NCBI GenBank assembly: GCA_049975525.1
Contig: JBNGCW010000001.1
Location: forward strand, 12,472-76,471
Length of the DNA stretch: 64,000 nucleotides
Source: Anaerolineae bacterium
Lineage (GTDB): Bacteria > Chloroflexota > Anaerolineae > B4-G1 > SLSP01
Direction of reading: 5' to 3'
A program made the translations under genes and the position numbers. Position 1 is the stretch's first letter, and every line of letters begins with the position of its first letter. The notes under the pieces were generated by a model, which saw only the letters and a program-made list of their open reading frames with translations, was not told the origin of the DNA and made no database searches. Below are positions 3,688-61,562 of the stretch, one piece after another.

Positions 3688-3739
3688 GGATCACCGCTTT
3701 CCTTTTCCTTTTCTTTTTGCGTAAGCATGATTGACTCCG

Positions 3740-3866
3740 CTGAAAAAAGGTCCTAAAAATCGGATTTTTAGCAAAACGCCCCCCTATATCTAGTGGTTTT
3801 GACCGCGAATTTTCCCGCATGTAGTGGCGAGTTCCGGAAAAATCCGATTTTTCCCACCTTTTTCAG
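3740..3866. repeat. MITE-like ~127-bp element, copy A, with ~30-nt terminal inverted repeats
   Basis: Left end ctgaaaaaaggtcctaaaaatcggatttttagc; right end ggaaaaatccgatttttcccacctttttcag is its near reverse complement. Each arm carries a 14-nt palindrome AAAAATCSGATTTTT. A near-identical arm recurs at 33045. Confidence 0.45.
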
Positions 3867-4368
3867 GTGAGTCAAGTATACTCTAGAGGAAACCGGGGGC
3901 AAAATGAAAGGGCCGACTGCACTCAGGGAACCTGCTTCCGCCTGGCCTTTGGTCCGCTTTTTCATCCGCCGCAGGCCAGGCCCGCGACCATCACCTCTGT
4001 ACCGGCCACCGCCACTTTTTCATATGTTCCCCTTAACGCCATGTTCCCTCCAAATGATACCCTAACATAGAATTGTAGAGAAAATATGGAGATCCGATGG
4101 AGAGTCTGTTTTTCTTGGGAAACCGGAGAAAGCTCTGGGCTGCTGGGCTGCCTGGGCATGACTCGGCAATGAATCCCCCACAGGAGTCTCTTGCCAAAAT
4201 GCGTAGTTTTGGTATAGTAGGGATTGACATCGTGCTTTCCTTTAACGCCCCTCGGTGCCGCTCCATTGAGGGACGTTAACCCAAGGGTAACGAAAAAGCA
4301 ATGTCGTGGGGAGCGTTGTCCTTTATAATTAGGATAAAATATTCTTTGAACCTATAAGGAGGTTTAGT

Positions 4369-4719
4369 GTGAGAAGAGAACGGGGTTTTACGCTGATTGA
4401 ATTGTTGGTGGTGATCGCCATTTTAGCAGTGCTCTTCGGGCTGACTGCGCTGGCGTTGAATGGCGTGGGCAGCGATGCTAAGAACAGGGCAGCCCAGGCT
4501 GAAGCGGATATGGTGCAGACGGCGATTGATGTCTATTCGGCCGTCAACGACGGCGCGACGGTGGCAAATTCAGCAAACTGCGAGAAGGTTGGCCCGGGTA
4601 GTGAGTTCGGTGCTTACCTGCGCCGGACATCACGCTATTACATTGGTTGGTCCAGCAACACCGTCCTGACCGCGTCTGAGAGTGCCGATTGTTCTTCGCC
4701 GCTCTGGACCCGCGATTAG
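4369..4719 (+). CDS. type IV pilin-like protein (prepilin N-terminal cleavage/methylation domain)
   Basis: Leader MRRERG followed by FTLIELLVVIAILAVL with Gly-1, Phe+1, Glu+5. GTG start at 4369 with AAGGAGG RBS 6 nt upstream. 116 aa. Confidence 0.75.
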   Translation: MRRERGFTLIELLVVIAILAVLFGLTALALNGVGSDAKNRAAQAEADMVQTAIDVYSAVNDGATVANSANCEKVGPGSEFGAYLRRTSRYYIGWSSNTVLTASESADCSSPLWTRD

Positions 4720-4803
4720 TCATTTGATTGTTTTGGCAGACCTGCAAAACACCCCAAAGGTCCCCAGGGCTTTTGGGGTGTTTTCCTGTCCCCCGTTTGG
4801 CCT

Positions 4804-6933
4804 GTGACGGCGAGCCGACGGATTCTTCCTGTAAGCCCCATTGCCTGCGCCGCACGACATCTCCGCGAAGGGTTGATCTTGCTCGCGGTGGGACTCGTGC
4901 CGCTGGTCTTGAACCCTCGCGGGCTCAACTACGTGCTTCCCAGGACGGCACTGCTGCGCGGCCTGATCCTGCTGCTGGGAGCGGCGCACGTGGTCGCGCT
5001 GTCCTGGGGTGACGGCGCGCTTCATCCCAGACTGTGGTTGCAACGTCCGCTGGTGCGACCCATCCTGGCCGTCGGCGCGGTTACGTTGCTCACTGCCTTC
5101 ACCTCCCTCGTTCCGCTCACCAGCCTGTGGGGCAGCTACCACCGTCAGCAAGGCGCTTATCTCACGTTGCTGCTCGTCGCGTGGAGTCTGCTGGTCGCCG
5201 GCAGCTTGCGCACGGCAAGGCAACGCAGGCGTGTCAGCACCGTCGTGGCCATCACCGGCACCTTGCTGGCGATCACGCCCTTCGTGGAATCTTTTTACTG
5301 GCATGAGAATCCCTTCACCTGGCGACCGGGTGGTACCCTGGGCAATCCCATTTTCCTGGGTGCGACGTTGGTCATGACCCTGCCCTTCACGCTGGCAACG
5401 ATGATAGCGTCCGTACGCCAACCCTCCGAGGTCTCCGAGAACTCGAAGGCTTCCAGGCTACACCTCGTCTGGGGTACTGCGCTGCTCCTACAACTCGTGG
5501 CCCTGCTTATCACGCAGAGCCGGGGACCGTGGCTGGGCGCGCTCGCCGGATTGTCGCTCTTCGTTGCGCTGTTCCTTGGACGCTCGCACCGTCGCTGGAT
5601 CGTGGGCGGGCTGATCGTGGCTGTTCTCGTGGGGGGCGGGCTGTTGGCCGGGCTCAACATAGGCGTCGTCCCGGCGGAGCGTCTCTCCCGGCTGCCCTAC
5701 GTAGGACGTGCCGTCAAAGCGACCGATCTCAGCCGGGGGACGACGCGCGTCCGCCTTGTGCTCTGGCAAGCGGCTCTGCAGCTGGTGACCACCTGGCCTG
5801 AAATCGGCCTGGAGCCGGACGCGCTGTACCCCTTGCGGCCTCTCATCGGCTACGGTCCCGATACGAGTGCCGTCGCTTACACCGCCGTCTACCCGCCGGA
5901 GCTGGCGCACATCGAAGACCCGGACGCCATTTGGGACCGGGCGCACAATGAGCTGCTGGACGTCGTGGTCATGCGCGGGCTGCTGGGACTTGCGGCTCTT
6001 GGCTGGCTGGCGGTGGCGCTGGGGCAACGTGGGTATCGACTCTGGCGACACGCGGCTTCCTCGACGGACCGGCTTTGGGTCGCGGCACCGTTGGCGGCGT
6101 TGGTCGCTCACGCCGTCGAAGTGCAGTTCGCGTTTTCCATCACCACGACGCAGATGCTGGGCTGGCTCGCGGTCGCGTGGATTGCTGCCCTGCCCAGGGA
6201 GGCAGATGCCGCGTCCGTTACGCAGGACGCGCAGGCGTCTCTACCCGCGATACGCTGGCGGATCTACGCTGCGGTTGGTACGCTGTTGCTTGTAGCCGTC
6301 GCCTTGCGCGTCGAAGGCGGCGCGATCTGGGCCGACACGCTGGCCGGACGCGCTCGACGCCTGGATCGACCGGCGCAGTGGCAGGAGAGCCTGGCGCTCT
6401 ACGACCGTGCCATCTCGTTCGTGCCCTGGTATGCGCCCTATTATCAGTTCCGGGCCGAAGCGCTTTTCAATCTGAGCCGGGGATTGCCGGAGACCAAAGC
6501 GCCGCTCAAAGCGCAGCTTTTCGCCGCCGCCGACCGGACATTGGCCCGCGCCCGAGACCTGCATCCGCTGGATCTGGAGCACTATGCCAACGCCGGGATC
6601 CTGCACGCCGCCTGGGCCGAAATCGATCCGGGACATCTGGAAGAGGCGGTGGCGTACTACGAGCAGGCCTTCCGGCTTGCTCCGACGCGCGTCTCTTTGC
6701 GCGTCGAATTGGGCCGTATCTACCATCACCACGCGCGCTACCGCGACGCGCTGACGCAGTATGACGCTGCGCTCGCCATCGATCCCCGCAGCGTCGAAGC
6801 CTGCTACAGTGCGGGCCTCGCCTGGGAAGCGCTGGGCGAGAGCGGACGGGCCCGCGCCGCCTTCGAGCGAGCTCTGGAACTCGATCCCGCCTGTGAGGCC
6901 TGCAAAGTGGCCCTGGCCTCGCTTTTGGAGTAG
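4804..6933 (+). CDS. O-antigen ligase (Wzy_C) family polytopic membrane protein with C-terminal TPR repeats
   Basis: About 12 TM helices with a large periplasmic loop typical of the Wzy_C / O-oligosaccharyltransferase family; C-terminal ~200 aa are TPR-like (AYYEQAFRLAP...ALAIDPRSVEACYSAGLAWEALGE...). Sits immediately downstream of the pilin gene. Start uncertain (GTG 4804). Confidence 0.65.
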   Translation: MTASRRILPVSPIACAARHLREGLILLAVGLVPLVLNPRGLNYVLPRTALLRGLILLLGAAHVVALSWGDGALHPRLWLQRPLVRPILAVGAVTLLTAFTSLVPLTSLWGSYHRQQGAYLTLLLVAWSLLVAGSLRTARQRRRVSTVVAITGTLLAITPFVESFYWHENPFTWRPGGTLGNPIFLGATLVMTLPFTLATMIASVRQPSEVSENSKASRLHLVWGTALLLQLVALLITQSRGPWLGALAGLSLFVALFLGRSHRRWIVGGLIVAVLVGGGLLAGLNIGVVPAERLSRLPYVGRAVKATDLSRGTTRVRLVLWQAALQLVTTWPEIGLEPDALYPLRPLIGYGPDTSAVAYTAVYPPELAHIEDPDAIWDRAHNELLDVVVMRGLLGLAALGWLAVALGQRGYRLWRHAASSTDRLWVAAPLAALVAHAVEVQFAFSITTTQMLGWLAVAWIAALPREADAASVTQDAQASLPAIRWRIYAAVGTLLLVAVALRVEGGAIWADTLAGRARRLDRPAQWQESLALYDRAISFVPWYAPYYQFRAEALFNLSRGLPETKAPLKAQLFAAADRTLARARDLHPLDLEHYANAGILHAAWAEIDPGHLEEAVAYYEQAFRLAPTRVSLRVELGRIYHHHARYRDALTQYDAALAIDPRSVEACYSAGLAWEALGESGRARAAFERALELDPACEACKVALASLLE

Positions 6934-31874: not shown

Positions 31875-32966
31875 TCAACCGGCGAAGTGCAGTGCGTCGA
31901 CGGGGCAGCGCGTCAGGCAGAGGCCACAGTGCGCACAGTTCTCCGGCCGCAGGCGGATCCTCTTCTCCTCAAGATAGAGCGCGTCGTAGACGCAGCTGAT
32001 GACGCAGCGGTTGCAACCGATGCACTGTTCTGGGAGGAGCTCCGGCGGGCGCGTCATCGCCGGGGCGCTCCGTTTCAGCGTCAATCCCTGGATGTCGCCA
32101 ACCGCAGCGTAGCCGTGCTTGTCCAACCACCGAGCGAGCTGCCTGGCCAGCTTGCCGAAGATGTCGGGCCCTTTGATGATGGCGGCTGTGCAGACTTGAA
32201 CCGCCGTCGCACCTGCCATGAGGAACTCGACGACGTCGCTGCCGGTGGTGATGCCTCCCACACCGATGACGGGCACGTCCACCACGCGGGTTACTTCGTG
32301 GACGATGCGCAGGGCCAGCGGTTTGAGCGCCGGGCCGGAGAGCCAGCCGTAGCCGGTCTCACTTCCCATCCACGGGCGGCCTCCGTGTTCGATGTCGATT
32401 CCCAGCGTGGGGCCGAAGGAGTTGACGGCGACGATGGCGTCGGCACCGGCCTCCTGCGCAGCGACGGCGGCACGGGGCGCGTCGCGGAAAGGGCTGAGTT
32501 TGACCAGCACCGGCACCTCCAGGGCGGCCTTGGCGGCCCGGATGGTCTCCTGCATGGGGTGCGGGTCGTCGCCGATGTAGTGGGTGCTCAATTCTACAGC
32601 GTCGGCGAAAGGGGCGATTTGGGGCGCCAGCGTGGCGATGTCTTCGGTCGAATAGCCCAGTCCCACGATGAGGGGCAGGCCGGTCTCATTCGCTGTCGTG
32701 CGGGCTCGGGGATACTCCTCTGCGATCCACTGTTCCGGCGGTAGCTCCGACCAGAGTTCGGTGTTGAGAAAGTAGGTCTTGAAGTCGGCCATATTGGGGT
32801 GGGGGACTTGTGCGGCGCGGGTGGAGATGGTCTTGGCGACCAACGCCGACGCCCCACCTTCGGCGCAGGCTCGAAGGGCGTCCGCGTTGCGCACCGGCGG
32901 TCCGGCGGCGGGCATGATGGGATGCTTCAACGTGAAAGCTAACAACTGCGTCGTCAACGTGCTCAT
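31875..32966 (-). CDS. dihydroorotate-dehydrogenase-family flavoprotein with C-terminal 2x[4Fe-4S] ferredoxin domain (PreA-like)
   Basis: DHODH-like TIM barrel (VKLSP..., GVGGITTG) followed by CIGCNRCVISC...CAHCGLCLTRCP. Confidence 0.7.
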   Translation of the reverse strand: MSTLTTQLLAFTLKHPIMPAAGPPVRNADALRACAEGGASALVAKTISTRAAQVPHPNMADFKTYFLNTELWSELPPEQWIAEEYPRARTTANETGLPLIVGLGYSTEDIATLAPQIAPFADAVELSTHYIGDDPHPMQETIRAAKAALEVPVLVKLSPFRDAPRAAVAAQEAGADAIVAVNSFGPTLGIDIEHGGRPWMGSETGYGWLSGPALKPLALRIVHEVTRVVDVPVIGVGGITTGSDVVEFLMAGATAVQVCTAAIIKGPDIFGKLARQLARWLDKHGYAAVGDIQGLTLKRSAPAMTRPPELLPEQCIGCNRCVISCVYDALYLEEKRIRLRPENCAHCGLCLTRCPVDALHFAG

Positions 32967-33043
32967 GGGGTGCTCCTTTTGGGGTGTAAGGGTTTATCAT
33001 TCTCCAGGTGCTACGTGCTTTCGAACCGGCAAATGAGGACTCT

Positions 33044-33169
33044 ATGAAAAAAGGTCTAAGAAATCGGATTTTTAGCTGACCATACTCTACCTTTGCTGAC
33101 TTTGGTCATGAGAAACCCACCTGTAGTATCAAGTCGTAAAAAACCCGATTTCTGCCGGTTATTTTTGTA
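33044..33169. repeat. MITE-like element, copy B
   Basis: Left arm tgaaaaaaggtctaagaaatcggatttttagc matches copy A at 3740 in 28 of 31 positions. Right arm gtaaaaaacccgatttctgcc...tttttgtag is the inverted counterpart. Total length ~126 bp, equal to copy A. Confidence 0.4.
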
Positions 33170-33343
33170 GAACCAATGAGAAACGTCAAAACCGTACTGT
33201 TTTCATAGGTGCGTTGCGCCTCTGGATCGAAAGCGACAATGTGCTGCCACAACGGTGTTGCGCCTTAGCGAAGGTCGTGTATGATGAGAACAATTCTATG
33301 TACATTTAGGGCCTTGTCAACGGGCAGGCCAAGGAGGTTTGGG

Positions 33344-61222: not shown

Positions 61223-61453
61223 ACCCTATCATAGCATAAAAAGAGGGTCTTTGTCAAGGGGGAATTGGTTGCACTGAAATAACTCAGACAAAGCGAAGTC
61301 GGGGTACTTCTCCCCTCAAGCTGTGACCGGTGTCCCCACCGCGCCACCGCAGAGGGAGGGGTGAGCGGTTTTCGGCCTTCAGGCAGCGCGGTGTGGGCAG
61401 CGCAGAACGGCACTTCACTGCGTTCCGTACCCGACTGCAAACCGGCGTCGCCT

Positions 61454-61490: not shown

Positions 61491-61562
61491 GCGGGCGTAG
61501 TTCAGTGGTAGAACGTCAGCTTCCCAAGCTGAATGTCGCGGGTTCGAGTCCCGCCGCCCGCT
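61491..61562 (+). tRNA. tRNA-Gly (anticodon CCC)
   Basis: Cloverleaf: acceptor gcgggcg/cgcccgc, D arm gttc-agtggta-gaac, anticodon stem tcagc/gctga with loop ttCCCaa, T arm gcggg-ttcgagt-cccgc, discriminator T. CCA is not encoded. Confidence 0.9.

Follow-up and report, generated by a model that had tools for sequence, protein, structure and literature searches.

The window, the whole stretch of 64,000 nucleotides of Anaerolineae DNA analyzed here, carries two related intergenic elements, designated copy A and copy B. Copy A lies upstream of a PhoP-like operon encoding a response regulator and a histidine kinase, and copy B lies upstream of a preA-like gene (dihydropyrimidine-dehydrogenase; 31875-32966, minus strand) that diverges from an AP-endonuclease gene. 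The features of both elements, the promoter-like sites next to them and related repeats in other genomes are collected in Table 1.

Table 1. Positions of the elements, their parts and associated features (window coordinates unless a locus number is given).
Feature	Position	Strand	Basis
Probable MITE copy A, full element, 141 nt	3733..3873	-	family alignment, nhmmer E=4.9e-39, terminus motif search, flanks
Copy A, left terminal inverted-repeat block GACTCCGCTGAAA	3733..3745	+	motif search
Copy A, subterminal palindrome 1 AAAAATCGGATTTTT	3755..3769	.	
Copy A, subterminal palindrome 2 AAAAATCCGATTTTT	3838..3852	.	
Copy A, right terminal inverted-repeat block TTTCAGGTGAGTC, reverse complement GACTCACCTGAAA	3861..3873	-	motif search
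Promoter-like TTGCCC-16-TATACT, response-regulator/histidine-kinase operon	3875..3902	-	consensus scan 9/12 and conservation
Left copy of 6-bp duplication AATGAG, copy B	33032..33037	+	read from sequence
Probable MITE copy B, full element, 137 nt	33038..33174	-	family alignment, nhmmer E=7.7e-41
Copy B, palindrome 1 AGAAATCGGATTTTT	33059..33073	.	
Copy B, palindrome 2 AAAAACCCGATTTCT, decayed	33139..33153	.	
Right copy of 6-bp duplication AATGAG, copy B	33175..33180	+	read from sequence
Promoter-like TTGACA-16-TAGAAT toward the preA-like gene	33293..33320	-	scan 11/12, invariant in two relatives
Probable solo or decayed terminus of the same MITE superfamily, GGTTGCACTGAAATAACTCAG	61264..61287	+	nhmmer marginal, E=0.063
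Members of families F2-F4	L012:5368-5563; L022:5216-5338; L059:54-241; L016:6832-7179; L082 near position 74		
Sites of the unrelated ~190-nt repeat	L002:4087-4154; L005:7461-7528; L021:1240-1425; L045:3250-3403; L049:4575-4630		

The conserved termini of the elements, GACTCNNCTGAAA...TTTCAGNNGAGTC (GACTC...GAGTC), were set by the family alignment, which carries the unit out to GACTCACCTGAAA...TTTCAGGTGAGTC. A first-pass annotation, made from the sequence alone, had described a 127-bp element with a second copy of the same length at 33044-33169; both copies are real, but the true ends lie further out, by ~7 nt in copy A and 5-6 nt in copy B, and the two lengths differ (141 versus 137 nt). The copies have the same orientation, which is reversed relative to the family member used as orientation reference for copy A (L001:4793-4931). 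Each arm contains two conserved blocks, a terminal block of 13 nt and a subterminal 15-nt palindrome (AAAAATCSGATTTTT), separated by a variable spacer of 8-11 nt; in the type common among MAGs, the spacers of the two arms are unlike each other (TAACTAGC versus AAAGGTCCA). The terminal sequence of the superfamily comprises 13-18 nt and reads GACTCNNCTGAAA(A/T)AA, and the left block of copy A is common to at least three other MITE families. Terminal inverted repeats had been estimated at ~30 nt; they are present, but extend over ~37 nt and are bipartite. In copy A, the arms at 3744-3769 and 3838-3863 form an inverted repeat of 26 nt with 88% complementarity, and out to the true termini 31 of 37 columns match (counted by eye). 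The spacing between the palindromes is 83 nt in copy A and 80 nt in copy B, where the right arm has decayed (terminus GGTTCTACAAAAATAAC, palindrome AAAAACCCGATTTCT). The interior of ~65 nt is non-coding and holds a direct repeat, ACTA(T/G)ATGTGGG. At 137-141 nt in the window, and mostly 139 nt in MAGs, the element is too short to encode a transposase. As a single strand with its arms paired, copy A has a folding energy of -51 to -53 kcal/mol (z = -5.5 to -6.7), while the decayed copy B reaches a z of merely -2.5 to -2.7.

Within the window, the palindrome is confined to these elements. Searching for AAAAATCSGATTTTT at up to two mismatches gives four matches against 0.00 expected from 100 shuffles, so that the palindromes reported earlier in each arm are all found in place; the 11-nt palindrome core occurs three times and nowhere else. 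Left arms of copies A and B are identical at 29 of 32 positions, and the identity over the whole element is ~65%. A profile search of the 64-kb window recovers the two full copies and one marginal solo terminus (61264-61287), which is 95% identical over 20 nt to GGTTGCCCTGAAATAACTAGC of locus L033. This terminus precedes a tRNA gene (61491-61562) by ~200 nt. A further motif, CCGGTGTCCCCACCGCGCC, is located ~40 nt beyond it (61327-61345); L005 contains many repeats of this motif (4300-4960), and it is also present in L080.

To define the distribution of the family, one genome per species (185,579 species) was scanned with the arm pattern AAAGGTNNNANAAATCGGATTTTT, which returned 63 loci. About 50 of these fall in four MAGs, namely DAOTUH01 (37), CAYVKR01 (9), CAZCPK01 (3) and JBNGCP01 (1), the tallies being counts of the contig names listed. 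DAOTUH01 is an Anaerolineae MAG (isolate F17_49), and the other three are all assigned to Anaerolineae or Anaerolineales. Most of the Anaerolineae loci carry a second palindrome 79-83 nt away, as the window copies do. When 42 copies are aligned, the unit is conserved throughout, interior included, and the flanks are unrelated. All copies are intergenic, and they occur in tandem, divergent and convergent gene contexts and in both orientations. Counting copies had been suggested in the first-pass annotation; in related Anaerolineae there are dozens of them rather than two, and the similarity between copies A and B spans the whole element rather than the arms alone.

Among the DAOTUH01 copies, identity ranges from 92 to 100%, and many contigs of this MAG (with MEGAHIT-style names, k129_) break off 126-127 nt into the element, at either their start or their end; together these are the marks that a recently amplified repeat leaves in a short-read assembly. 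Copies are also found on metagenome contigs, and independent contigs of this kind (L065, L066 and L068) encode proteins identical to those of the window and break inside copy A at the first or second palindrome. The copy of JBNGCP01 (L027) is closest to copy A, the chief difference being a 12-nt deletion in the left arm of L027, and the DAOTUH01 type is closest to copy B; each window copy is thus nearer to copies of other genomes than to its partner. The two belong to the same family, as first proposed, yet to different subfamilies, and by these comparisons they are read as old, diverged insertions. Nothing suggests current activity in the source genome.

The remaining loci of the scan comprise a repeat in a Gammaproteobacteria MAG, two Dehalococcoidia contigs and chance matches in coding sequence. 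The gammaproteobacterial matches were considered as the end of an IS and rejected, since they belong to a separate intergenic repeat of ~75 nt whose likeness was forced by the search pattern. This multi-copy repeat is found in the Gammaproteobacteria MAG and in a Rhodobacteraceae MAG from the same sample (L053:1510-1585; L018, L029, L046-L048, L054 and L058); it contains a 33-nt near-perfect palindrome, AAAGGTCTGAAAAATCGGATTTTTCAGACCTTT, with its dyad around one central base, and adjoins a GC-rich hairpin. Its core resembles the Anaerolineae arm, which may be chance given a match forced by the search pattern. In the Dehalococcoidia MAG SOJQ01, L037:6790-6900 and L050:1-110 share a repeat starting with AAAGGTAGCATAAATCGGATTTTTCAGTGCTAATGGAGCGCGAAA, which may represent another Chloroflexota repeat family with a related core.

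Target-site duplications, whose presence had been proposed as a check, are found across the family, including the exact 6-bp one at copy B. Thirty-one full copies have readable flanks, and eight of them show exact 6-mer duplications (AAGCAT, AAAGGT, AGTCTT, TTACTT, ATGATT, ATCTTT and AACCTT, plus AATGAG at copy B); exact 7-8-mers flank five copies, bringing exact duplications of 6-8 bp to 13 of 31, and seven further copies have flanks matching at five of six positions. Seven of the exact 6-mers and the seven five-of-six matches come from a tally, and the AATGAG of copy B from direct reading of the sequence. Mismatched-flank controls give exact 6-mers in 0.9% of cases. The target consensus, AANNTT, is palindromic, with A at -6 in 26/31 copies, T at -1 in 29/31, A at +1 in 29/31 and T at +6 in 28/31. 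The alternative of longer termini (TTGACTC...GAGTCAA or TG...CA) with a shorter duplication was rejected; the 6-bp model is preferred because deviations from the TT/AA flanks recur in duplicate (AATGAG, TTACTT, AAAGGT and AAGCAT). The flanks of copy A (ATGATT at 3727-3732 and AAGTAT at 3874-3879) match at three of six positions, its duplication having decayed beyond recognition. The spread of 6-8 bp in duplication length is unusual and counts against a MITE. Duplications of this length occur in a few IS groups.

The position of copy B can be compared with two relatives, L080 and L082, whose preA-like proteins are 86% and 83% identical to that of the window and which keep the divergent AP-endonuclease/preA pair. 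The intergenic region measures 135 nt in L080 and 254 nt in L082, both without the element, versus 378 nt in the window, and the block TTGACA-16-TAGAAT is invariant across all three. Copy B lies downstream of this block, within the predicted leader of the preA-like gene and ~110 nt past the expected transcription start. About 100 nt around copy B (33008-33037 and 33181-33240) are likewise missing from the closest relative, L080, and this flanking DNA contains outer inverted repeats, GCTTTCGAACC (33017-33027) and GGATCGAAAGC (33224-33234). The DNA that received copy B may thus have been an earlier insertion, or a hairpin region that varies.

Copy A is located 1 nt downstream of the conserved -10-like box TATACT. 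In the relatives L084 and L086-L089, whose response regulators are 85-87% identical to that of the window, the upstream gene is different and the intergenic regions are short, and the block GAGTATACT is invariant. The distance from TATACT to the ATG is 25-29 nt in these relatives, whereas in the window it comprises 1 nt, the 141-nt element and 45 nt. When copy A is deleted in silico, the window aligns with the relatives over GAGTATACT, a purine-rich RBS block and the ATG, with ~20 additional nt separating copy A from the conserved RBS block. Should the promoter suggested by the scan and by conservation be real, the transcription start would fall within the terminal part of the element, and copy A would be leader RNA in its entirety. 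For the divergent pilin-like gene (4369-4719, N_methyl domain), which lies upstream of the operon, the best promoter-like site is TTGCCA-16-TATAGT with a TG extension (window 4191-4218), which precedes the gene by ~150 nt and is well clear of the element. The synteny of the operon (window region upstream of 3687) is unlike that of the relatives L084, L086 and L088 on both sides: a Ser/Thr kinase gene lies downstream in the window, and a co-directional MacB/FtsX ABC-transporter gene lies upstream of the operon in L086 and L087. The rearrangement breakpoint coincides with the intergenic region of copy A.

Both copies sit, as first described, in divergent or promoter-proximal intergenic DNA, each lying between a conserved promoter-like block and a gene start. 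Empty sites had also been named as a check, and the element is absent from the orthologous loci of both copies in relatives, but the exact empty-site allele was not found: the predicted site for copy B gave 0 matches in an exact-match metagenome scan. Divergence of the intergenic DNA leaves the empty sites in relatives imprecise. This weighs against a MITE, as do the unrecognizable duplication of copy A, the ~20 additional nt beside it, and a count of two full copies and one remnant in the 64 kb of the source genome covered here.

Further signs of mobility are seen in the wider family. Tandem and nested insertions occur in L036, L038, L061 and L063, and deletion derivatives of 108-109 nt (L021:350-457 and L031:2233-2341) are attributed to recombination between the two copies of the interior direct repeat. 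A solo arm in L003 lies between a stop codon and the next RBS. At least three sister families (F2-F4) share the 18-nt termini GACTCNNCTGAAA(A/T)AA and the TT/AA flanks of the family described here (F1), with unrelated interiors; they are 120-350 nt long and lack the palindrome, and the ends of F3 form a self-complementary fold-back (CTCTACTGAAAA-AAGGG-TTTTCAGTAGAG). One of them is also present in L082, which is closely related to the window organism. The common termini of F1-F4 point to one common transposase.

The parent of these families was sought among the MAG loci (~430 kb), viral contigs, a metagenome scan, plasmids and phages, and none of these contained an autonomous IS with such termini. 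On viral contigs, the terminal pattern gave four chance matches and the arm pattern none; a second metagenome scan returned four loci, all of them copies of the element and none a parent; BLAST against plasmids and phages gave no meaningful matches; and no long repeats common to different loci were found. Several candidates were rejected. Terminus pairs 0.5-4.5 kb apart in all loci have unrelated 'arms' (13-21 of 45 matches), a 3-kb candidate in L003 is the solo arm beside ordinary genes, and the sequence joined to the element in L002 and L005 is a different, unrelated MITE-like repeat, which in both loci interrupts an F1 element at one and the same position. This last repeat, of ~190 nt, occurs in DAOTUH01 and has the ends GTTAACTTC...GAAGTTAAC. 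The missing parent is weak negative evidence, as MAG assemblies commonly lose IS copies.

Taken together, both features are very probably copies of a ~140-bp non-autonomous DNA transposon (MITE) native to Anaerolineae. The element combines the traits of a MITE, being small (under ~600 bp) and non-coding, with terminal inverted repeats, target-site duplications, dispersed copies with unrelated flanks, and presence/absence polymorphism. Of the two natures first put forward, the miniature non-autonomous transposable element is borne out by the many copies in related genomes, the duplications and the absence at orthologous sites. The family had also been called undescribed for this genome, with which a full-text literature search agrees, in that it found no such element among MITEs of Anaerolineae or Chloroflexi; it is apparently an undescribed family of ordinary mobile DNA, of a known kind. 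A transposase encoded elsewhere, most likely of the DDE type, would move the element in trans by recognizing the terminal block and cutting AT-rich AANNTT targets with a stagger of 6 bp, or now and then of 7-8 bp, which would yield the observed duplications. The sites of both copies are in the 5' leader or promoter region of a minus-strand gene. If the promoters are used, the element would be transcribed as part of the mRNA leader, and its arms could fold into a long hairpin that could alter mRNA stability or translation.

The second nature first put forward was a dispersed operator pair, in which a dimeric regulator binds two copies of AAAAATCSGATTTTT, 80-83 nt apart, to loop or bracket promoters, and the remainder of the unit is incidental. 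Across 11 diverse copies, conservation is highest in the palindromes (mean column identity 0.91-0.92; termini 0.61-0.80, interior 0.63), although the use of a palindrome-containing pattern to collect the copies inflates this figure. Read inward from the termini, the palindrome takes the form AGAAATCGGATTTTT in 73 arms, AAAAATCGGATTTTT in 7, AAAACTCGGAGTTTT in 4 and AAAAATTGAATTTTT in 1, and the last two keep the dyad symmetry via paired changes; such changes, and the conservation itself, fit an operator, transposase binding and ascertainment bias alike. The promoter-proximal leaders in which both window copies lie would also suit an operator. So would a palindrome found in L052 in front of a TetR-like gene, but that site is a decayed solo MITE arm and not an independent operator, and the TetR-operator lead was rejected on this ground. 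The arm in question (L052:5545-5630) includes AAAAAATCGGATTTTAT and lies between the promoter-like TTGTCA...AATAAT and the RBS of the TetR-like gene (MKHRLDRRVRRTRKALQKALL...). As a primary nature, the operator pair fails on several counts and is highly doubtful: the whole 140-nt block moves, with its non-palindromic termini and interior also conserved; it is accompanied by duplications and stands beside unrelated genes in tandem, divergent and convergent intergenic contexts; nested insertions are left without an account; relatives keep the same promoters without the element; and F2-F4 have the termini and no palindrome.

The lack of the palindrome in F2-F4 also implies that it may be dispensable for mobilization. 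In the MITE, it could be bound by the transposase as an accessory site, be bound by a host factor or form a local hairpin. It is improbable, if conceivable, that the palindrome doubles as an operator for a dimeric DNA-binding protein (a regulator of the host or a repressor derived from a transposase), so that the MITE spreads operator pairs and rewires regulons. If so, ready-made operator pairs would enter promoters and 5' leaders across Anaerolineae, for instance at the PhoP-like operon and the preA-like gene.

Mobile elements of another class were also considered. A REP/REPIN or IS200/IS605 derivative would be moved as single-stranded DNA by an HUH tyrosine transposase (RAYT/TnpA) recognizing subterminal hairpins, and the element resembles these in having subterminal palindromes at both ends, in being short, intergenic and of high copy number, in its ability to fold back on itself as a whole, and in the failure to find a DDE parent. 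However, the 6-8-bp duplications of variable sequence and the terminal inverted repeats of 13-18 nt are both features that HUH-mobilized elements lack, there is no fixed 4-5-nt target 5' of the element, and the palindrome consists entirely of A-T pairs save one G-C pair next to the center, which would make a weak hairpin. The GTAG or CGTC heads that characterize REP superfamilies (PMC3733652) are absent, the termini being GACTC.... The duplications and missing heads thus separate the element from REP/REPIN sequences, in which a palindrome of 20-40 bp bears such a head and the target site is not duplicated, and the terminal inverted repeats and variable duplications from IS200/IS605, which leaves this origin with very little to recommend it.

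A structured ncRNA gene or cis-regulatory leader (sRNA- or riboswitch-like) conserved in Anaerolineae is just as hard to credit: the strong folding (z down to -6.7) and the location of both window copies in leaders, in the same orientation to the downstream gene (uninformative at n=2), are offset by copies in both orientations and all gene contexts, convergent 3' ends included, by duplications and nested insertions that denote DNA mobility, by a predicted structure that is merely the inverted repeats pairing, and by the lack of any Rfam match above threshold. With Rfam 15 at the gathering threshold, no family is found at the elements, the sole match in the window being a tRNA elsewhere. In E-value mode, copy A gives sub-threshold matches to generic long-hairpin plant miRNA models (best 25 bits, threshold 83) and copy B to the sRNA family PsrR1 (21.6 bits, threshold 42). 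Intrinsic terminator function was likewise rejected, no terminator-like site being found in or at the elements.

As a MITE, the element can be set beside several known systems. Correia elements (CREE), the MITEs of Neisseria, are similarly ~100-150 bp long and non-coding, with terminal inverted repeats and many intergenic copies; they often lie near promoters and become part of mRNA leaders by co-transcription, their repeats pairing there as a hairpin. They are known only from Neisseria and have a TA duplication, terminal inverted repeats of ~26 bp and an IHF site, whereas the element described here has a 6-8-bp duplication at AANNTT, a bipartite repeat with a 15-nt palindrome and no sequence similarity to them. 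The enterobacterial ERIC/IRU sequences (127 bp) and RUP of Streptococcus pneumoniae are also small intergenic imperfect palindromes of similar size, which are transcribed with their neighbors and thought to be mobilized in trans by an IS transposase (for RUP, of the IS630 type). They differ in sequence, host phylum and duplication length, ERIC having no clear target-site duplication, and similarity to the element is absent from the plasmid and phage collections. The presence of several families with different interiors and common termini in one lineage (F1-F4) recalls Nezha and other cyanobacterial MITEs, although a cognate IS is known for Nezha-type families and none was found here. REPINs and their RAYT share the arrangement of paired, inverted short palindromic units, intergenic and in high copy, but are without duplications and carry GTAG/CGTC heads (PMC3733652), in contrast to the duplications and other termini seen here.

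While the general understanding of MITEs is unchanged by this finding, the Anaerolineae, which are poorly studied and mostly uncultured, gain a defined MITE superfamily of at least four families for repeat annotation. These elements fragment MAG assemblies, and masking them or scaffolding across them would improve such assemblies. The local interest lies in their placement in two gene leaders: located between a conserved promoter-like block and a start codon, both copies are natural candidates for insertion-driven changes of expression, in a two-component operon in the case of copy A and in a pyrimidine-catabolism gene in the case of copy B.
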